The notes: generated from the sequence alone by a model not told the origin. A DNA stretch of 64,000 nucleotides from Puia sp. (GCA_035499855.1 DATJXY010000027.1:7489-71488); one strand, 5' to 3'. Shown: positions 9,440-63,810, numbered from the stretch's first letter. Made by a program: numbers and translations.

Positions 9440-11542
9440 ATGAGAAAATCTTCAACATTAGTAGTCCTCAACTGCCTGCTTCTTATCTTCTCTGATCTTT
9501 CTTTCGCACAAAAAAAAGACCTCAGTTTTGATCAGATATTTAAGGGAGCTTCTTCAGATCTTATCAAGCCACTGCCTACGATAGCTGGATGGCTTGACGA
9601 TGAGCACTATCTGATCAGGCAAAAAAACAATACAAATGGCACCATCAGTGAAATGTCTGTGGATGTAATATCAGGGAAGTCGGTACCATATATCAAACCT
9701 TCCGAACCGACCAATAGAACTCAAGTTGAGCCTCCCTATCGCAATGAAAAAAATAAAACTGCTTCCCCCGACGGCAAATGGATTGCATTTACACGCGATA
9801 ATAATTTATTCATCCGACAAACCGAAACAGGAAAAGAAATCGAACTAACGAAAGATGGTTCTGAAAGTGTATATAACGGTTATGCGGCATGGTTATATTA
9901 TGAAGAAATATTAAACAGGTCTTCCCATTATAAAGCTTTCTGGTGGAGCCCCGATAGCAAGCACATCGCCTACATGCATTTTGATGAATCACTGGTCCCT
10001 GTTTTCCCCATTTTTAATTCAGAAGGGCAACATGGTTCACTCGAAAATCAACACTATCCAAAAGCTGGCGATAAAAATCCGGCAGTGAAGATTGGAATCA
10101 TAAATATTGATGACCTCAATAATATATGGGCTGATTTTGATGAAAAGGATGACCAATATTTTGGAATGCCTTCATGGACCCCTGATGGGGCTTCATTATG
10201 GGTACAGTGGATGCCCCGGAGCCAGGATAATCTAAAGATATATGCGGTAGATCCCGCAAACGGAACTAAGAAAGAAATATATGATGAAAAACAAAAAACA
10301 TGGATTGATTTGGATCTTGACAAAAGGATCATATTTACACCCAGTGGCAAAAAATTTATTTTGAGAAGTGATAAGTCCGGGTGGATGCATTTGTATCTGT
10401 ATAATATGGATGGATCTCTGATAAATCCAATAACTCAGGGAGACTTTAGCGTTACTGATTTGGTCAGGATCGACGAAAAAGAAAAACTGATTTATTTCAA
10501 AGCAAGGAAGGAAAATTCTGCAAGAATTGATTTTTATAAAATAAATATGAATGGAAAGGAATTAATGAGACTGAGTTTCGGAAATTATTCTCACGATTCC
10601 ATCAATTTGTCACCAAATGGAAAATATTTCATTACCACTTTTTCAAACTTGTCTACTCCGCCTAAAATGGCCCTCGTCGACAATAACGGAAAAATAATTC
10701 GGGAATTGAGTGACAGTAAAGATTCTTTATTCAATGAGTATAATCTTAGCAAAACAGAGTTGGTACATGTTAAATCTTCAGATGGTCTTTTTGATTTACC
10801 AATGACCATCACTTATCCCATTCATTTTGATTCTTCCAAAAAATATCCTGTGTTAATCAGTATTTATGGAGGTCCTAATGCAGGTACCGTATACGACAGG
10901 TGGGGTCGGAATTTTCTTACTTCACAATGGTTTGCAAAAGAAGGGTTGATTCAGGTTGCCATGGACAATCGCAGCAGTGGTCATTTTGGAAAAAAGGGTA
11001 TGAATTATATTTACCGTCAGCTGGGAAAATATGAAATTGAAGATTATATGGATTGCGGCCGTTGGTTAAGAACACAATCTTATGTTGACACATCTAAAAT
11101 ATGTATAACAGGCGGAAGTTTTGGAGGGTATATTACATGTATGGCTCTTACTTATGGTGCGGATATCTTTACTCACGGGCTGGCAAATTATTCGGTTACT
11201 GATTGGCGTTTGTATGACACGCATTATACGGAAAGATATATGGACATGCCGGAGGAAAATCCAGAAGGGTATAAAATAACTTCCCCGCAAACATATGTCA
11301 CCAAATACAAAGGATTAATCCGCATTACTCATGGCAATATGGATGATAATGTTCATATGCAAAACAGTATCCAGCTCATTAATAAACTGGAAGACCTTGA
11401 TAAACATTTTGAATTTATGATTTATCCGGGAGGCAGGCATGGATGGGGAGGCCCAAAGGCAATACAATTACGCAATGAAAGCTATCAATTTATTTATGAT
11501 CATTTGCTAAATAAACCAATGCCGGATTTGTTCTGGAAGTAA
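9440..11542 (+). CDS. S9B family dipeptidyl-peptidase IV-like serine peptidase
   Basis: DPPIV N-terminal propeller (YPKAGDKNP), nucleophile GGSFGG, DDNVH, GRHGW; signal peptide from ATG 9440. Confidence 0.9.
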   Translation: MRKSSTLVVLNCLLLIFSDLSFAQKKDLSFDQIFKGASSDLIKPLPTIAGWLDDEHYLIRQKNNTNGTISEMSVDVISGKSVPYIKPSEPTNRTQVEPPYRNEKNKTASPDGKWIAFTRDNNLFIRQTETGKEIELTKDGSESVYNGYAAWLYYEEILNRSSHYKAFWWSPDSKHIAYMHFDESLVPVFPIFNSEGQHGSLENQHYPKAGDKNPAVKIGIINIDDLNNIWADFDEKDDQYFGMPSWTPDGASLWVQWMPRSQDNLKIYAVDPANGTKKEIYDEKQKTWIDLDLDKRIIFTPSGKKFILRSDKSGWMHLYLYNMDGSLINPITQGDFSVTDLVRIDEKEKLIYFKARKENSARIDFYKINMNGKELMRLSFGNYSHDSINLSPNGKYFITTFSNLSTPPKMALVDNNGKIIRELSDSKDSLFNEYNLSKTELVHVKSSDGLFDLPMTITYPIHFDSSKKYPVLISIYGGPNAGTVYDRWGRNFLTSQWFAKEGLIQVAMDNRSSGHFGKKGMNYIYRQLGKYEIEDYMDCGRWLRTQSYVDTSKICITGGSFGGYITCMALTYGADIFTHGLANYSVTDWRLYDTHYTERYMDMPEENPEGYKITSPQTYVTKYKGLIRITHGNMDDNVHMQNSIQLINKLEDLDKHFEFMIYPGGRHGWGGPKAIQLRNESYQFIYDHLLNKPMPDLFWK

Positions 11543-11550
11543 AAGCTGAT

Positions 11551-11583
11551 ATACGAATATGCAAATTTGCAAGATGTGCAAAT
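11551..11583. repeat. octamer tandem array (RTGCRAAT type)
   Basis: ATACGAAT ATGCAAAT TTGCAAGA T GTGCAAAT; same unit as 63721-63797. Confidence 0.6.
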
Positions 11584-11630
11584 AATTATCAATTCCTGAA
11601 AAAATTTAGTGATTGCATGTTTACAGGTTG

Positions 11631-19018: not shown

Positions 19019-20266
19019 ATGCCATCAATGAATAGAAATAAAAATATAGATTTGTCAAAGTTTTTTGTAGCCGGAATTAATTATAAAAAAACAGATACTC
19101 TTGTCAGAGGATCTTTTGCTATTGGCCTGGAACAATACGAAAGAATTCTTACTCTCGCCCCATCTTTTGGAATTAATGAGTTGTTTGTTCTTTCTACCTG
19201 CAACCGTACAGAAATATATGGCTTCGCAGAGGATGCCCGGCTACTGATTGATTTGCTTTGCACTCAAACAACGGGATCAAAAGAGATTTTCCGGGAATTA
19301 TCTTACGTAAAAAATGGCCATGCTGCAATAAAACATCTTTTTAATGTAAGCGCAGGTCTCGATTCACAAATTCTGGGAGATTATGAAATTGTAGGTCAGA
19401 TCAGGCAGGCTGTTAAATTCGCCAGAGAAAGAAAATTCGTTCATTCTTTTCTGGATAGGATGACGAATGCCGTTTTGCAATCCTCCAAATCAATCAAAAA
19501 CCAAACAGGCCTCAGTGATGGGACTGTTTCAGTTTCTTTTTCAGCTGTACAGTATATCCGTGAAAAAATTATTGATGTTTGCGATAAAAAAATATTGTTG
19601 CTGGGAGTTGGTAAAATTGGCCGTATTACATCCAAAAATCTGATTGATTATCTAGGAACCCGTAATATCACATTGATTAATCGTACTGAAGAAAAAGCAG
19701 CCGAACTGGCAAATGAGTTGGGCTTGCAATATGCTCCTGCGGATCAGATGAATCAGCACATTGCCAATGCAGATATCATCCTTGTAGCTACAAATGCTCC
19801 TGAACCTGTCATCCTGAAGAATCAACTTGAAAACAAAGGAAATAAACTGATTCTTGATCTTTCAATACCTTGCAACGTAGAGAAGGAAGTACAGGAATTA
19901 GATTATGTCAACCTGATTGATGTGGATGAATTATCCAGGCTGAAAGATGAAACCTTGCAGAAACGTGAGGCAGAAGTCCCGAAAGCAAAAGAAATCATCT
20001 CCATGCATATGGACGAACTGATAGAATGGTATGAAATGCGTAAGCACGTTCCTGTCCTGAAAGCAGTAAAAATGAAATTAAAAGAAATACATACTTCTTC
20101 TCTGTTTGTACAGCCCTCTCCCAACCAAGAAATTTTAAGTACTACTGCTGATGAAAAAATTCAGCGCGTAATAAACGGAATGGCCTCAAAAATGCGCCGG
20201 CAAAATCAACGGGGTTGCCATTATATCGAAGCCATTAATGAATTTATCGCCGGCAGTACAAACTGA
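19019..20266 (+). CDS. hemA: glutamyl-tRNA reductase
   Basis: LSTCNRTEIY, AGLDSQILGDYEIVGQ, LLGVGKIG. Confidence 0.96.
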   Translation: MPSMNRNKNIDLSKFFVAGINYKKTDTLVRGSFAIGLEQYERILTLAPSFGINELFVLSTCNRTEIYGFAEDARLLIDLLCTQTTGSKEIFRELSYVKNGHAAIKHLFNVSAGLDSQILGDYEIVGQIRQAVKFARERKFVHSFLDRMTNAVLQSSKSIKNQTGLSDGTVSVSFSAVQYIREKIIDVCDKKILLLGVGKIGRITSKNLIDYLGTRNITLINRTEEKAAELANELGLQYAPADQMNQHIANADIILVATNAPEPVILKNQLENKGNKLILDLSIPCNVEKEVQELDYVNLIDVDELSRLKDETLQKREAEVPKAKEIISMHMDELIEWYEMRKHVPVLKAVKMKLKEIHTSSLFVQPSPNQEILSTTADEKIQRVINGMASKMRRQNQRGCHYIEAINEFIAGSTN

Positions 20267-20271
20267 AAAAA

Positions 20272-21228
20272 ATGGGAAAATTGGTCCGGATAGGAACAAG
20301 AGAAAGCCGGTTGGCTGTTTGGCAGGCAACTGAAGTAATGAATTTATTAGCCCATCAGAAAATAAAAGCTGAACTGGTTTTCATAAAGAGTGAAGGTGAT
20401 ATTGACCTGCAAACCCCCTTGTACGAAATGGGCGTACAGGGTATTTTTACAAAAAGTCTTGATATTGCTCTGCTGAATAATAGAATTGATATTGCTGTAC
20501 ATTCTATGAAAGATGTACCCACACAATTACCAAATGGAATCATACAGGCGGCAGTACTAAAAAGAGGAAACTCTAAAGATTTGCTTGTATATAGAGATGA
20601 ATTGGAGACAGTGAATCGTGAATTGTCAATGGCGAATGATAAGAAAAAAATTTCCAATTCATCATTTATTGTTGCTACCAGCAGCATCCGTCGTAAGGCC
20701 CAATGGTTGAATCGATACCCCGAACATCAAATAGAAAATTTGAGAGGCAATGTGAATTCCCGCTTGCAAAAGCTGAAAGAAAATAGTTGGAACGGAGCGA
20801 TCTTTGCCGCCGCAGGGTTGGAAAGAATTAATCTTCGTCCTGAAAAGGCCATTGAACTTGATTGGATGTTACCAGCACCTGCCCAGGGAGCAATCATGGT
20901 CGTTTGCAGGGAAAATGATTTGGACATATATAACGATTGCCGCCACTTGCATGATGATCGTACTGCTCAATGCACTAAAATAGAAAGAGATTTTTTGAGA
21001 GCATTACTGGGTGGCTGTTCTACTCCTATCGCAGCTTTCGCCGAAATAGAAAAAAATGAAATTTATTTCAGAGGAAATATTTTGACACCGGATGGAAGTC
21101 AAAAAGCAGAAATAGAAAAGAAACTGCCATTGGAAAAAATGAGCAATCTCGGCAAAATCGCTGCAGAGGAACTATTAATCAATGGCGGCAAAAAAATTAT
21201 AGAGCAATTCCATCATGCAGAAAAATAA
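20272..21228 (+). CDS. hemC: hydroxymethylbilane synthase (porphobilinogen deaminase)
   Basis: IGTRESRLAVWQA, DIAVHSMKDVP, ATSSIRR, LRGNVNSRL, GGCSTPI. Confidence 0.97.
   Translation: MGKLVRIGTRESRLAVWQATEVMNLLAHQKIKAELVFIKSEGDIDLQTPLYEMGVQGIFTKSLDIALLNNRIDIAVHSMKDVPTQLPNGIIQAAVLKRGNSKDLLVYRDELETVNRELSMANDKKKISNSSFIVATSSIRRKAQWLNRYPEHQIENLRGNVNSRLQKLKENSWNGAIFAAAGLERINLRPEKAIELDWMLPAPAQGAIMVVCRENDLDIYNDCRHLHDDRTAQCTKIERDFLRALLGGCSTPIAAFAEIEKNEIYFRGNILTPDGSQKAEIEKKLPLEKMSNLGKIAAEELLINGGKKIIEQFHHAEK
20596..20667. repeat. periodic palindrome embedded in frame in hemC
   Basis: ATGAATT GGAGACA GTGAATC GTGAATT GTCAATG GCGAATG (20597-20638); perfect 11-bp IR GATGAATTGGA (20596-20606) / TCCAATTCATC (20653-20663). 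Confidence 0.75.
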
Positions 21229-21931
21229 AGCATCGATATTATGTACAATGTCCTTACCTCAAACTGCCATTCAGAATCTGAATGAAGAAAATATTTCTGT
21301 TGATTATCTTTCTTTTATTCATGTCAGCTCCGCTCTTCAGCCTGAATTAGTTCAAAAAATTAAAAAATTGTCAGAACAGACTGCAATAGTTGTTTTTACC
21401 AGCAGTCATGCAGTAAAGATTACTACCGGTATTCTAAAAAATCAAAAACCTTCCTGGAGAATATATTGCATCTCAGGAGTCACTGAAAAAGAGACAGCTG
21501 CTTTTTTTGGGAAAGAATCAATCGCAGGAACAGCTACTGATGCTTTAAGATTGGCTAAAAAAATAGCGGGAGACGAGATAAGAGAAATTACATTTTTTTG
21601 CGGAGATCAAAGAAGAGATGAATTGCCATCGCACCTCACGCTGCATAAGATATTAGTAAATGAAATCCTTACTTATAAAACTCAATTGACCCCCCAGAAG
21701 ATTTATAAAAAATATAATGGTATTTTATTTTTCAGTCCGAGTGCCGTGGACAGTTTTTTTTCGGTGAATGAAGTGGATAAAGCAACAATGTTGTTCGCCA
21801 TTGGTAATACGACAGCAAACGCAATAAAAAAGCATTCCCTGAATAAAATAATTATAAGTGAACTGCCCAACAAGGAACGATTGATAAAAAGTGCTGCAGA
21901 ATATTTTCAAACAAACCCTATTAATTTTTAA
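21215..21931 (+). CDS. hemD: uroporphyrinogen-III synthase
   Basis: [39 protein letters not shown]; between hemC and hemE. Confidence 0.9.
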
Positions 21932-21953
21932 AAACCCGAATAGATATACGCAG

Positions 21954-22997
21954 ATGAATCCAATTAAAAACAGTTTATTATTAAGTGCCTTAAAAGGAGA
22001 AAAGGTAGAACGCCCCCCGGTTTGGATGATGCGACAGGCAGGCCGTTATTTGCCCGACTACATGAAGTTAAAAGATAAGTATTCTTTTTTTGAACGTGTT
22101 CAAACGCCCGAGCTTGCAACAGCAATCACTCTACAACCCGTTGATCAAATAGGTGTAGATGCTGCAATTATTTTTTCTGATATATTGGTAGTGCCGCAGG
22201 CAATGGGTCTCGAAGTTCAGCTAATTGAAAATAAAGGCCCTTACTTACCCGAACCGATAAGAAGTATTGAAGATATAAAGCGGGTATACGTTCCCGATAT
22301 CATGGAAGAATTAAATTATGTTTTTGACGCTTTGCAAATGACAAAGCAGGAATTAAAAGACAGGGTACCCCTAATTGGCTTTGCGGGAGCTCCCTGGACA
22401 TTATTCTGCTATATGGTCGAAGGCAAAGGATCCAAGACTTTCGATCTTGCAAAAAAATTCTGTTATACACAACCAGCCGCATCGAATCAATTACTTCAAA
22501 TGATTACGGACACAACAATCGCTTATTTAAAGCAGCAGATAAAATCCGGAGCTGATGTCATTCAAATTTTTGATAGTTGGGGAGGATTATTATCTCCTGA
22601 TGATTTTGAACATTTCTCATTGAAATACATAAGACAGATTATCGAATCAATAAAAGAAGAGGTTTTAACGATCATCTTTGCCAAAGGAGCATGGCATTCG
22701 TTAAAAAGCATGGCAGAAACCGGAACTGACGGGTTGGGTATCGATTGGTGCATTTATCCACAAATGGCAAGAAAATTGGCTGGCAATAATGTTACGCTGC
22801 AGGGTAACCTGGATCCGGCTAAATTATTATCTCCCGTTCCGTTAATTAAAAAGGAAGTAAGAGCCATGATGGATAATTTTGGCGAACAGAAATACATTGC
22901 CAACCTGGGTCATGGCATACTTCCGGAAACACCCGTCGATCATGCACGTGCATTTGTAGATACTGTAAAAGATTATCAATACGAAAAAATATCATAA
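21954..22997 (+). CDS. hemE: uroporphyrinogen decarboxylase
   Basis: [40 protein letters not shown]. Confidence 0.97.
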
Positions 22998-23045
22998 AAG
23001 CAGAAGGTATCATCTTTTTTTCGTGCCTGTCGAAACATATTCATT

Positions 23046-24008
23046 ATGAGCATCACCAAAATTTATAAAACAGAAACATCTGCATTCAGAGGAGTATGGA
23101 TTGAGTTCATTTATGATCTGCAAAAAAAAATTTGTTTAGAATTAGAAAAGAAAGATGGCAAAGCACTGTTTAATGAAGATGATTGGGAAAGAGCAGAGGG
23201 CCGGGGCGGTGGTGGCAAAACAAAGATAATTACGAATGGCAATACATTCGAAAAGGGGGGAGTAAATGCTTCTGTGGTCTATGGAAAAGTCGGGGATACC
23301 ATGCGCAAACAATTAAAAATCGATGGAGCAAAATGGTTTGCCTGTGGACTCTCCATTATTATTCATCCGCTAAATCCATATGTACCTACGATTCATTCAA
23401 ACTGGCGTTATTTTGAATTATATGATGAAGAGGGTTATGTCATTGACCGTTGGTTTGGGGGAGGCATTGATCTGACTCCTTATTATCTTTTTGAAGAGGA
23501 TGCAAAATATTTTCATGAGACCTTGAAAAACACAATCGACCCCTTCGGAACTAAATTATATCCTTTATATAAAAAAAATTGCGATGAATATTTTTGCAAC
23601 ACGCACCGGAATAATGAAATGCGTGGGATTGGTGGCGTATTTTACGATTATTTAAGACCAACTGATGAAAACGATGCACAAAAATTGTTTCAATTTCAAC
23701 AGGCCAATGGAAATGCTTTCTTAAATGCATATTTACCTATAGTAGATAAAAGAAAAGATATTCTTTATAGCAACCGTGAAATTGAATGGCAGGAAATAAG
23801 ACGAGGACGCTATGTTGAATTCAATTTAATTCATGACAGGGGTACGGTTTTCGGATTGAAAACGAATGGAAGGACTGAAAGTATTTTAGCAAGTCTTCCA
23901 CCACGGGCCAGATGGTATTATGATTATCAGCCCGAAGCAGGAAGTGAAGAATACAAATTATTGCAGGCATGTCTTCATCCGAAAGAGTGGGTTTCTACTG
24001 AAGAATAA
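23046..24008 (+). CDS. hemF: oxygen-dependent coproporphyrinogen-III oxidase
   Basis: FEKGGVNAS, WFGGGIDLTP, RGIGGVFYD, RRGRYVEFNL. Confidence 0.96.
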   Translation: MSITKIYKTETSAFRGVWIEFIYDLQKKICLELEKKDGKALFNEDDWERAEGRGGGGKTKIITNGNTFEKGGVNASVVYGKVGDTMRKQLKIDGAKWFACGLSIIIHPLNPYVPTIHSNWRYFELYDEEGYVIDRWFGGGIDLTPYYLFEEDAKYFHETLKNTIDPFGTKLYPLYKKNCDEYFCNTHRNNEMRGIGGVFYDYLRPTDENDAQKLFQFQQANGNAFLNAYLPIVDKRKDILYSNREIEWQEIRRGRYVEFNLIHDRGTVFGLKTNGRTESILASLPPRARWYYDYQPEAGSEEYKLLQACLHPKEWVSTEE

Positions 24009-24031
24009 AGAATATTAAATAATAAATATAA

Positions 24032-25000
24032 ATGCAGCGACGAAACAGAATTCTAAGGGCTGGTTCTTCTATCAGAAGTCTTGTTGCCGAAACTATTTTA
24101 ACTCCTGATGATTTTATCGTTCCGCTTTTTATCGACGAGGGGAAAAATGTAAAGACTGAAATTGTGTCCATGCCCGGATATTACCGGAACAGCATTGATA
24201 TTACTGTAAAAGAAGTTAAGGAGCTATGGAAACTGGGTTTGAAATCAGTGCTGATTTTTATAAAATGCGCGGATGAACTGAAAGATAATACCGGGAAAGA
24301 AGCATGGAATAAGAATGGGCTCATGCAGCGAAGCATCCAGTCTATTAAAGAAGCTGTACCGGAAATGGTGGTAATGACTGATGTTGCACTTGATCCTTAT
24401 TCATCTTTTGGACATGATGGCATCGTAAAGGGAAATGAAATTGTAAACGATGAAACTGTAGAAGCCCTTGTGAAAATGAGCCTGAGTCATGCCGAAGCCG
24501 GAGCGGATTTCGTCGCTCCCAGTGATATGATGGACGGGCGTATCGGATCAATCAGAAAAGGACTTGAAGAAAATGGTTTTATCAAAACGGGGATAATGGC
24601 ATATAGTGCCAAATATGCTTCCTGCTTTTATGGTCCTTTTCGTGATGCCCTGGATTCGGCCCCGGGTTTTGGTGATAAAAAAACTTACCAGATGGATTAT
24701 GCAAACCGGATTGAAGCCATCAAAGAAACAATAATGGATGTGGAGGAAGGAGCTGATATTGTCATGGTAAAACCTGCCCTAGCTTACCTGGATATCATCC
24801 GTGAAGTAAAAAATGCAGTGCATGTTCCCGTTAGTGCGTATAATATTAGCGGTGAATATTCAATGATTAAAGCAGCGGCTAAAATGGGCTGGCTAAATGA
24901 AGAAAAAGCAATTCTTGAAGTCCTGACTGCAATTAAACGCGCGGGAGCCGATTTGATAGCAACCTATTTTGCAAAAGATGCAGTGAAACTGATATCGTGA
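24032..25000 (+). CDS. hemB: porphobilinogen synthase (ALA dehydratase)
   Basis: DVALDPYSSFGHDG, APSDMMDGRI, FYGPFRDAL, MVKPALAYLD. Confidence 0.97.
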   Translation: MQRRNRILRAGSSIRSLVAETILTPDDFIVPLFIDEGKNVKTEIVSMPGYYRNSIDITVKEVKELWKLGLKSVLIFIKCADELKDNTGKEAWNKNGLMQRSIQSIKEAVPEMVVMTDVALDPYSSFGHDGIVKGNEIVNDETVEALVKMSLSHAEAGADFVAPSDMMDGRIGSIRKGLEENGFIKTGIMAYSAKYASCFYGPFRDALDSAPGFGDKKTYQMDYANRIEAIKETIMDVEEGADIVMVKPALAYLDIIREVKNAVHVPVSAYNISGEYSMIKAAAKMGWLNEEKAILEVLTAIKRAGADLIATYFAKDAVKLIS

Positions 25001-25463
25001 AAGGTGAATGGTCAATGGTAAATGTATCCTACTATGAAAACATATTGTTAACCTCAAACTTTATGCTATATTTCTTATTCTTAATCACCATAAAATGGAT
25101 ATCGATCGGGTTTCAAAAAAACTTGTACTCTCCTGTTATAGATTAACAAATGGATTTCCTACTGAAGAAAAATTTGGGATAGTTTCGCAAATGAGGCGAG
25201 CTGCTTTATCAGTACATTTAAATATTGCTGAGGCTGCTTCCAGAAAATCAGGTATTGAAAGAAAGCGGTTTTTTGAAATCGCCAGGGGATCTGTAATTGA
25301 AATCGATGCTGCATTTGACATAGCTTCCGATCTTGATTATTAAAAAAAAATAAATTCAGATTCACTTAGGGAAGTCATCATCAAATGCTTTAAAATTCTA
25401 AGCTCTTTAATCAATTCAAAAAATATAATTAATCCTGTTCACCATTGACCATTCACTATTCAC
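24997..25463. mobile_element. heptamer-arm inverted-repeat cassette carrying a four-helix-bundle gene
   Basis: Left arm GTGAAAG GTGAATG GTCAATG GTAAATG (24997-25024); right arm TGTTCAC CATTGAC CATTCAC TATTCAC (25436-25463); 16-bp perfect core; mobility is inferred, not shown. Confidence 0.6.
25068..25448 (+). pseudogene. four-helix-bundle protein (23S rRNA-IVP family), in-frame TAA at 25341-25343
   Basis: IFLILNHHKMDI...FPTEEKFGIVSQMRRAALSVHLNIAEAASRKS...FFEIARGSVIEIDAAFDIA; reading frame continues past TAA as KKINSDSLREVIIKCFKILSSLIN (helix 4). Confidence 0.8.
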
Positions 25464-26762
25464 ATGTACACCGATTCCAGCAAACAACTTTTCCAGCGCG
25501 CTCAGCAATCTATTCCGGGTGGTGTAAACTCACCTGTCCGTGCTTTTAAAAGTGTAGGAGGCAATCCTATTTTCATTAAAAAAGCAAAGGGCGCTTATTT
25601 ATATGATGTAGATGACAACCGATACATTGATTATATTGCTTCCTGGGGACCGATGATTCTCGGTCATGCTTATGAGCCCGTCGTAAAAGCTATTCATGAA
25701 AAAGCATTGGATTCCACTTCATATGGAGCGCCCACAGAACTGGAAATTGAAATGGCAGAATTGATCATCAGCATGGTGCCTCATGTTGATCTGATCAGGA
25801 TGGTGAGCAGCGGAACAGAAGCCTGTATGAGCGCCATCAGGCTGGCAAGAGGATTTACCGGAAGAAATAAAATCATCAAGTTTGAAGGTCACTATCATGG
25901 ACATGCGGATTCTTTTCTTGTAAAGGCAGGAAGTGGGGTAGCAACCCTGAACATTCAAACTGTTCCGGGAATAACTGCAGGCGTATCCAATGATACACTC
26001 ACCTGCGCTTTCAATGATTTGGAAGCTGTTGAACAAATTTCGCATGAGCATCGGGGTGAGATCGCAGCTATTATTGTTGAACCGGTTGCCGGTAATATGG
26101 GCTGCATCCTGCCAAAACCCGGATTTCTGGAAGGATTGAGAAAAATCTGTGATGAGCAAAATATCATACTAATCCTGGATGAGGTAATGACTGGTTTTCG
26201 GCTTGCACCCGGCGGAGCGCAGGAAAAATTGAATATCCGAGCTGATCTGGTAACATATGGAAAAGTCATTGGCGGAGGCTTACCTGTAGGCGCTTTTGGC
26301 GGAAGAAAAGAAATCATGCAGCATATTGCTCCTCTTGGAAATGTTTACCAGGCAGGTACGCTGAGTGGAAATCCACTTGCAATGATTGCCGGTTATATTA
26401 CATTACAGGAATTAAAGAAAAACCTCTCTATCTACGATGAATTAAATAAAAAAACAGTTGATTTGAAAAATGGATTGGACAAAATCCTTCAATCAATCGG
26501 AATACCTTATATGATCAATCAGTTTGGATCCATGATCAGTATACATTTCACCAGCCATCCCGTGACTGATTTCGCATCCGCAGCTTCGGCTGATTCGGAA
26601 AAATTTAAAAAATTTTTTCATGCAATGCTTAACAGGGGAATTTATTTACCCCCCTCTGCTTTTGAAAGCTGGTTTCTGAATAATGCACTGACAAAAGAAG
26701 ATATTCAGTACACGATCAGCGCCGCAGAAGAAAGTCTGAAAGAAATTTCATCAACCAGATAA
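25464..26762 (+). CDS. hemL: glutamate-1-semialdehyde 2,1-aminomutase
   Basis: [45 protein letters not shown]. Confidence 0.97.
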
Positions 26763-51462: not shown

Positions 51463-51544
51463 GATGGTTTGATGGTTAGATCGCCTGATAGCTGTAAAAT
51501 CCTATTCACAATCTAACCATCAAGCAATCAAACAATCAAACAAT
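51463..51544. repeat. periodic palindrome, octamer type (GATGGTTT)
   Basis: GATGGTTT GATGGTTA GATCGCCT GATAGCTG / ATCTAACC ATCAAGCA ATCAAACA ATCAAACA; 13-bp perfect IR. Confidence 0.85.
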
Positions 51545-55307: not shown

Positions 55308-55388
55308 GTTGACAGATGAAAGGTTACAATAACAAATTATCATGAGTATTGTAAATAAAGTCTGTCATCTGTCAACCGTCATCTATTA
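55308..55388. repeat. periodic palindrome, heptamer type (GATGACA)
   Basis: GTTGACA GATGAAA GGTTACA / TCTGTCA TCTGTCA ACCGTCA TCTATTA; 12-bp perfect IR. Confidence 0.8.
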
Positions 55389-63722: not shown

Positions 63723-63810
63723 ACTAATGTGCGAATTTGCAAATGTGCAGATGTGCGAATTTAGACATCAAAAATATGCAAATCCGCACATTCGCAGATT
63801 TTCATCTGAT
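63721..63810. repeat. periodic palindrome, octamer type (GTGCGAAT)
   Basis: ATACTAAT GTGCGAAT TTGCAAAT GTGCAGAT GTGCGAAT / ATCCGCAC ATTCGCAG ATTTTCAT. Confidence 0.85.

Follow-up and report, generated by a model that had tools for sequence, protein, structure and literature searches.

In a 64,000-nt stretch of DNA from Puia sp. (GCA_035499855.1 DATJXY010000027.1:7489-71488, hereafter the window), the spacer between the heme biosynthesis genes hemB and hemL is taken up by a 467-bp cassette, which is a copy of a bacterial insert that is common, has hardly been described and is related to rRNA intervening sequences. The cassette holds a four-helix-bundle gene of the PF05635/TIGR02436 family between two inverted arrays of heptamers (the arms), and in the genus the genes of this family normally come with such arms. 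It represents the type of intervening sequence that bears an open reading frame (ORF), in an mRNA setting, for which no published description was found. A cassette of this type in decay, with a PF05635 gene between two inverted arrays of about four heptamers, is the explanation leant towards here, with guarded confidence.

Architecture of the hemB-hemL cassette

The two arms, taken as 28-mers, each consist of four heptamers of the form GTSANNN, with GTCAATG as the third unit in both. A repeat finder recovered them as inverted repeats at 24997-25022 and 25438-25463 (26 nt, 88% complementary, 415 nt apart), and Tandem Repeats Finder reported a period of 7 at 25003-25024, within the left arm. The hemB-hemL spacer measures 463 nt, and the cassette is flush with both genes: the hemB TGA (24998-25000) lies within the first heptamer of the left arm, this first unit providing the last codon and stop of hemB (TCG TGA), and the hemL ATG begins at the base directly after the right arm (25464). 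The same TCG TGA-ATGG junction was observed in seven other filled alleles. The RNA fold predicted for 24985-25475 closes a terminal stem, with a minimum free energy of -113 kcal/mol (z = -3.95 against 100 shuffles). A previous sequence-only reading of the window had described the 467-bp cassette, the inverted arms of four heptamers and the flush position against the hemB stop and the hemL start, and had inferred that the transcript folds into a long stem; it agrees with these results in each respect. An Rfam scan of 24000-26500 with E up to 1 matched no RNA family, and the cassette, which is located between hemB and hemL, is not an insertion in a 23S rRNA helix.

The ORF in the loop (25095-25343) matched PF05635 with an E value of 9e-24 (84.1 bits, curated cut-off 33.8) and TIGR02436 with an E value of 8e-23 (80.7 bits, curated cut-off 24). 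Its reading frame is not intact. Alignment with intact orthologues placed the ancestral start codon at 25068-25070, where ATA now stands, the first remaining ATG being that at 25095, and a premature in-frame TAA was found at 25341-25343, past which the frame stays open as far as the right arm, where its natural TGA lies (25446-25448). The window cargo is a pseudogene of the PF05635/TIGR02436 family; the four-helix-bundle gene named in the sequence-only reading is thus present as to its family, and broken. With the start codon lost and a nonsense codon gained, only the stem could still act at this locus. The conserved family motif GxxRxxxSxxxNxxE (PMC3936711) was present as RRAALSVHLNIAE in the window copy and in all orthologues of type A, one of two cassette types found at this junction (see below). 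Among the type A copies at hemB-hemL 16 of 20 were intact; selection therefore normally acts on the protein.

An intact orthologue (locus L139) was modelled as a four-helix bundle with a predicted local distance difference test score (pLDDT) of 91.2. This model superposed on Xcc0516 (2GSC), a pentamer of four-helix bundles (PMC10053308), with a template modelling (TM) score of 0.86-0.93, and on BT_0352 (2RLD) with a TM score of 0.78. Foldseek also aligned it with the Avd chains of 8UB7 and 8UB8 (TM 0.68-0.75, at a sequence identity of 6-7% and with E above 1).

The coordinates of the cassette and of the surrounding heme genes are collected in Table 1.

Table 1. Features of the heme gene row and of the cassette within it (window coordinates)
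Feature	Position	Strand	Basis
Heme biosynthesis gene row around the cassette	19019..26762	+	ORF order
hemA-like ORF	starts 19019	+	translation read by eye, no profile scan
hemC-like ORF	20272-21228	+	translation read by eye, no profile scan
hemD-like ORF	starts 21215	+	translation read by eye, no profile scan
hemE-like ORF	starts 21891	+	translation read by eye, no profile scan
Coproporphyrinogen oxidase	23046-24008	+	named by Pfam/NCBIfam
hemB (porphobilinogen synthase)	24032..25000	+	PF00490 E 1e-141; NF006762 E 6e-146
Left arm, GTGAAAG GTGAATG GTCAATG GTAAATG	24997..25024	+	
Leader, left arm to ancestral start codon	25025..25067	+	
PF05635/TIGR02436 four-helix-bundle pseudogene, ancestral frame	25068..25448	+	profile match and orthologue alignment
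Right arm, reverse complement GTGAATA GTGAATG GTCAATG GTGAACA	25436..25463	+	
hemL (glutamate-1-semialdehyde 2,1-aminomutase)	25464..26762	+	TIGR00713 E 2e-186

Gene and arms as a recurrent package

To place the window copy among its relatives, 96 family genes from 23 genomes of the genus were surveyed. Each was given an arm score, obtained under a fixed scoring scheme as the strongest pairing of its 220-nt upstream flank with its 200-nt downstream flank, and 300 random windows of the window's own genome served as the chance control. The random windows had a median score of 18, a 99th percentile of 26 and a maximum of 28. The arms of the window cassette scored 37, and the family genes had a median of 50.5, with 87 of the 96 above the random 99th percentile. 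The layout is not a matter of chance, and PF05635 genes in this genus are, as a rule, packaged with arms. Among the 87 armed cassettes the best period was 7 in 51 and 8 in 27, the median arm length was 37 nt and the median cassette length 516 nt. The 5' arm was G-rich in 71 of 84 cassettes, a share that varies by unit family and comes from non-independent cases.

The window's genome has seven family matches. Inverted periodic arms are visible around five complete copies and a partial one, with a different unit in each, and the seventh, which is without its N-terminal part, has a clear array on one side only. In the same genome, at C56:100096-101013, an intact four-helix-bundle gene was observed amid a longer composite hairpin repeat in several copies, made of GGTCAAA/TTTGACC and CTTCGGC units, an arm structure more complex than simple four-unit arms. 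The sequence-only reading had supposed a self-contained module and had proposed searching the TIGR02436 genes of the genome and of the phylum for flanking inverted arrays; in the genome and the genus the arrays are enriched as it expected, and the module recurs.

For the comparison of arms with proteins, arm similarity was measured by shared 7-mers. Single-linkage clustering of the arms chained 59 cassettes together and was replaced by a pairwise permutation test. Pairs with similar arms had a mean protein identity of 66%, against 27.5% for pairs without a common arm 7-mer, and the Mantel correlation between arm and protein similarity was 0.385, with none of 2000 permutations as high. The correlation persisted in pairs with unrelated flanks and in paralogues of one genome. 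In the orthologous cassettes at hemB-hemL the GTSA core of the unit was kept and positions 5-7 varied by genome (ATG, GTA, ATC, GAC, GTT), and within one cassette these positions were identical across all units of both arms. This concerted change points to homogenisation across the arrays, not to independent point mutation with pairwise compensation. By these comparisons, gene and arms evolve as one unit.

At the hemB-hemL junction itself, three genomes of the genus were filled and nine were empty, with spacers of 7-30 nt, which are the empty alleles that the sequence-only reading had suggested looking for; gene-less repeat arrays were present in seven genomes and an unrelated gene in two. Of 71 named Chitinophagaceae loci in which hemB and hemL adjoin, 21 had a four-helix-bundle gene. 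Two unrelated cassette types, A and B, occupy the junction, with proteins that are 21% identical and with different arms (GTSANNN in type A, GAAAAAT-like in type B). The junction states are interleaved on the tree of HemB and HemL. Close sister pairs differ at the junction (L121/L122, L134/L139, L151/L140), L154 with type B pairs with L165 with type A, and sister genomes can also differ in having a filled site or one without a cassette. The HemB and HemL of the L193 genome are 96-98% identical to those of three sisters, whereas its cassette differs from theirs in the arms and reaches an identity with them of only 55-57%, against 92-95% among the cassettes of the three sisters. L138 is an internal-deletion derivative that has kept both gene ends and the arms and lost the middle. 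The cassette thus appears to have been gained, lost and exchanged at this junction across the Chitinophagaceae, and sister genomes often differ.

Several other arrangements were observed around this junction. In L002, L007 and L191 a small unrelated gene (protein MFIIELTYKV...) is located there in place of the cassette, and in L161 there is a gene pair that resembles, by eye, nucleotidyltransferase/HEPN. On contig C3 of the related genome G001 (1457868-1463922, which includes L006), the heme genes are accompanied by three four-helix-bundle cassettes in a stretch of 6 kb, one ahead of hemB, one in the hemB-hemL spacer and one after hemL. The records of L170 and L197 are titled Acinetobacter pittii and Brevundimonas vancanneytii metagenome-assembled genomes, and their HemL is 76% identical to the window HemL; both are probably mis-binned or mislabelled contigs.

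The placement of the armed cassettes relative to neighbouring genes was strongly one-sided. The upstream gene was co-oriented with the cassette in 76 cases against 9, and the downstream gene in 45 against 42. Within same-strand gene pairs 40 cassettes were co-oriented and 4 opposed, and a further 36 lay between convergent and 5 between divergent pairs. The left arm starts at a median of 0 nt past the upstream stop codon, and the right arm ends at a median of 2 nt ahead of the stop codon of a convergent neighbour; the cassette sits flush at the stop codon of a same-strand upstream gene. Read inward into the arms, the density of stop triplets was twice that read outward, and in 23 of 87 arms (7.5 in shuffles) the outer 28 nt had a stop in each of the three frames. 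Among the 87 cassette leaders TAnnTTTG, the -7 motif of Bacteroidota, showed no enrichment (5 against 6.3 expected), as would suit a cassette expressed by read-through from the gene before it. A sigma-70 promoter scan gave nothing above shuffles, and the leader of the window cassette held no convincing promoter.

Gene-less arrays and competing explanations

The arms belong to a wider population of arrays. The window's genome contains 141 tandem arrays of period 7 and 53 of period 8, against 11 of period 6 and 17 of period 9. Many of these are paired in inverted orientation around loops of 11-113 nt, with units of the same types as the cassette arms, and 16-17 gene-less inverted array pairs were counted. 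Gene-less arrays of the same unit type are much more numerous than the cassettes with a gene, which are therefore one form within a larger repeat system. The gene-less hairpins obey the same flush rule as the cassettes, with starts between -9 and +8 nt from facing stop codons. Gene-less hairpins at C37:11574-11682, C45:17841-17985 and C47:~11482-11544 have a near-identical loop of 35-40 nt, the only multi-copy loop found, and the right arm differs in at least two of them (CTTTGAC vs CATTGAC).

Within the window, other arrays of period 7 or 8 were observed at 1187-1215, 11556-11584, 51508-51544, 55361-55384 and 63726-63760, with the units ACTTTCGG, AATATGCA, ACAATCAA, TCTGTCA and AATGTGCA, as part of the genome-wide excess. 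A run of four in-frame heptamers of the cassette-arm unit type (GTGAATC GTGAATT GTCAATG GCGAATG) also lies within hemC at 20612-20639, where it is translated as ...VNRELSMAN..., with a weak inverted partner at about 20655-20668.

Three unit types were followed across the genus. Threefold GGTSAAW had 58 matches in the window's genome, and arrays of this type had 31-189 matches in 4 genomes of the genus and 0-2 in 37 others. AGTGTGRG arrays had 85-184 matches in five genomes, exactly those in which sampled cassettes have AGTGTGRG arms; a control with the unit written backwards is invalid for this type because the reversed unit is a rotation of itself. GCYTAAC arrays were abundant in ten genomes, among them G049, G050 and G041, though no sampled cassette there has GCYTAAC arms. 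In each of the 18 genomes of the genus from which the gene family is missing, all three array families had 2 or fewer matches, and 15 of the 23 genomes with the gene family had at least 10 matches for one of them; the 18 are mostly one clade, so these counts amount to few (about two) independent contrasts. High array counts for the three tested unit types occur only in some of the genomes that have the gene family. A strict rule of one cognate gene for each array family was rejected, since three genomes break it for GCYTAAC, and the complete genome of the window breaks it for the AATGTGGA-type arrays, which are present there with no gene that has such arms.

According to the explanation leant towards, the cassette would be transcribed by read-through from hemB within the heme operon, and the arms would pair in the transcript into a stem of 26-28 bp that loops out the cargo. 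This stem would probably be cut, parting the hemB and hemL messages, because the layout is that of the 23S rRNA intervening sequences excised by ribonuclease III (RNase III). The stop-rich arms may allow the unit to land at the end of a reading frame without a long fusion protein, and at the window locus the cargo gene is dead and the stem alone persists. Several results weigh against this account. Cleavage at the arms is argued by analogy. The cassette encodes no recognisable enzyme for its own movement: in the Pfam scan PF05635 was its sole ORF, with no transposase or other enzyme, and no direct repeat bracketing the arms was found with the repeat finder or by sequence inspection, so there is no target-site duplication. 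The lack of both had already been remarked from the sequence, and a transposon or a miniature inverted-repeat transposable element was rejected on these grounds. No recent identical copies of the cassette were seen, and the loops of 17 gene-less hairpins matched no cassette interior; cassette deletion was for this reason rejected as the general origin of such hairpins, with L138 at hemB-hemL as the exception. The arms as universal all-frame stops were likewise rejected, since closure of all frames is enriched, yet is found in only 23-34 of 87 arms. In an approximately unbiased (AU) test on the 121-residue protein, common descent of the L193 cassette with those of its sisters was not rejected (p = 0.17), and the proposed replacement in L193 therefore rests on the contrast in identity. 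Finally, a stem selected in RNA only should bias arm mismatches to G.U on the gene's strand, and the wobble test was flat, with 95 sense-type and 89 antisense-type mismatches; an RNA-level stem is therefore not favoured over a DNA-level one, and the stem could matter in DNA, RNA or both.

This strand symmetry of the mismatches is what would be expected of an element at the DNA level, in which the arrays would serve as recombination or transposition ends, perhaps as hairpins or cruciforms, for an enzyme whose gene lies elsewhere, and the RNA stem would be a by-product. The exchange of cassettes at a single junction in near-identical hosts, the concerted change of all units in both arms, which suggests DNA conversion or slippage, and the in-frame heptamers within hemC are in accordance with such an element. 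It is regarded as unlikely, for there is neither a target duplication nor a linked or recognisable enzyme, the co-orientation with the upstream gene in same-strand pairs (40 vs 4) is needless for a purely DNA-level element, and the units differ among copies in one genome, so that one enzyme would have to recognise many ends. Rather improbable in our view is a pair acting in cis and trans in the manner of REPIN-RAYT systems, in which the pentameric protein would recognise the heptamer core (GTSA) and spread or maintain the arrays, the gene-less arrays being its satellites. The distribution of GGTSAAW in 4 genomes against 37, the match of AGTGTGRG with the five genomes with such arms, the low counts of all three families in the 18 gene-less genomes beside high counts for one family in 15 of 23 others, the agreement of unit type with protein clade, and a conserved GTSA core beside drifting positions 5-7 all argue for it, but the abundance of GCYTAAC in G049, G050 and G041, the AATGTGGA-type arrays without a matching gene in the window's genome, the narrow phylogenetic spread of the gene-less genomes (about two independent contrasts) and a protein without a known catalytic motif argue the other way.

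On a further reading the arrays would be a host feature: they would form by slippage at gene ends, as message-end or all-frame stop modules, and the gene would be a passenger in the hairpin loop. The position of gene-less hairpins at facing stop codons, their loops of unique sequence that are not copies, the dominance of periods 7 and 8 (141 and 53, vs 11 and 17 for periods 6 and 9), as would suit a design in which one frame must not stay open, and the G-rich heptamers, usually in four units, near stop codons in Xanthomonas and Nostoc (PMC4692102) are compatible with this. It is nonetheless very improbable here, as the arms travel with the gene (a sister has a GTGAATG-armed cassette where its relative has an unrelated hairpin or an empty site), arm type tracks protein clade and not merely host genome, and the three tested array families are absent from the 18 gene-less genomes. 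Beyond the decayed intervening-sequence-type cassette in the window, a broader proposal is put forward tentatively, as a possibility that we would doubt more readily than accept. PF05635 genes and inverted heptamer or octamer arrays may be one self-propagating system, in which a gene with its arms would move to sites directly at the stop codons of transcribed genes, the gene-less arrays would be satellites and the protein would read the GTSA core; the copies in 23S rRNA would be those that landed in rRNA, and much of the bacterial heptamer DNA that lacks an explanation (cyanobacterial short tandemly repeated repetitive (STRR) sequences, Xanthomonas GGGAATC) would be the footprint of the system.

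Relation to known systems

In the cassette the function of the ORF of rRNA intervening sequences, a puzzle since 1993, meets the heptamer repeats of bacteria, known since about 1990. At one junction, sites that are empty, that hold either type of cassette, that hold arrays without a gene or that hold an internally deleted copy form a natural series, and three quantitative rules (covariation of gene and arms, flush placement at the upstream stop, and abundance of three array types only in gene-carrying genomes) make both puzzles testable by ordinary experiments. As the cassettes lie inside operons, they may also affect the annotation of gene ends and the expression of downstream genes such as hemL. 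In a library of papers searched for the family names and for heptamer repeats together with intervening sequences, none was found in which copies of the family outside rRNA are connected with inverted arrays of heptamers.

Intervening sequences of 23S rRNA that bear an ORF have been described in Leptospira and Coxiella burnetii (PMC4990558, citing Ralph and McClelland 1993). That of Coxiella measures 428-444 nt, with a 28-bp stem, mapped RNase III cuts, a decaying ORF and tandem heptamers GACAGAT in the stem region, their number varying by strain (PMC4990558). The window cassette resembles the rRNA type in the protein family within the loop, in size (467 nt here), in a stem of ~28 bp around the ORF, in tandem heptamers (four per arm here), and in the decay of the ORF with the stem kept and no enzyme. 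It differs in its host molecule, which here is the spacer of an mRNA operon, flush with a stop and a start codon, and in the gene-less arrays that match the arms genome-wide, undescribed for the rRNA type. Excision by RNase III was shown for Coxiella and is putative for the window cassette.

The PF05635 family and Avd, the accessory protein of diversity-generating retroelements, form one family in CDD (PMC10053308). The links to rRNA intervening sequences and to Avd drawn in the sequence-only reading are those of the published accounts (PMC4990558, PMC10053308). The cassette protein shares the fold and the CDD family with Avd and differs from it in sequence, as the identity and E values given above indicate. 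With a heme gene on either side, the cassette has no adjacent reverse transcriptase; no search was made for template or variable repeats. The family has also been noticed wedged between cas genes (PMC3936711).

Heptameric repeats are known from Xanthomonas (GGGAATC), Nostoc (GGGGAYT) and Geobacter metallireducens (four tandem heptanucleotides) (PMC4692102, PMC2700814). They are like the arrays described here in their period of 7, in the preference for four units, in their intergenic position near sense-strand stop codons, in frequent convergent inverted pairs (70-75 in Xanthomonas), in their depletion between divergent genes, and in being transcribed (PMC4692102, PMC2700814). Unlike the present arrays, they are tied to no gene family in those papers (PMC4692102, PMC2700814). 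The GTGAATG units are without G-tracts, so the quadruplex explanation does not apply here. Xcc0516, the crystallised PF05635 protein, is from Xanthomonas campestris, the species of the strain in PMC4692102.

Repetitive extragenic palindromic (REP) sequences and the REPIN-RAYT systems are similar in that a gene is flanked by an inverted short repeat which is also scattered without the gene in intergenic regions, in their lineage-specific repeat families, and in their position just after stop codons. They differ in the protein, which in the cassette is a four-helix bundle without the HUH/Y1 transposase domain (PF05635 only in Pfam), in the arms, which here are tandem arrays and not single palindromes, and in the presence here of several unit families within one genome.

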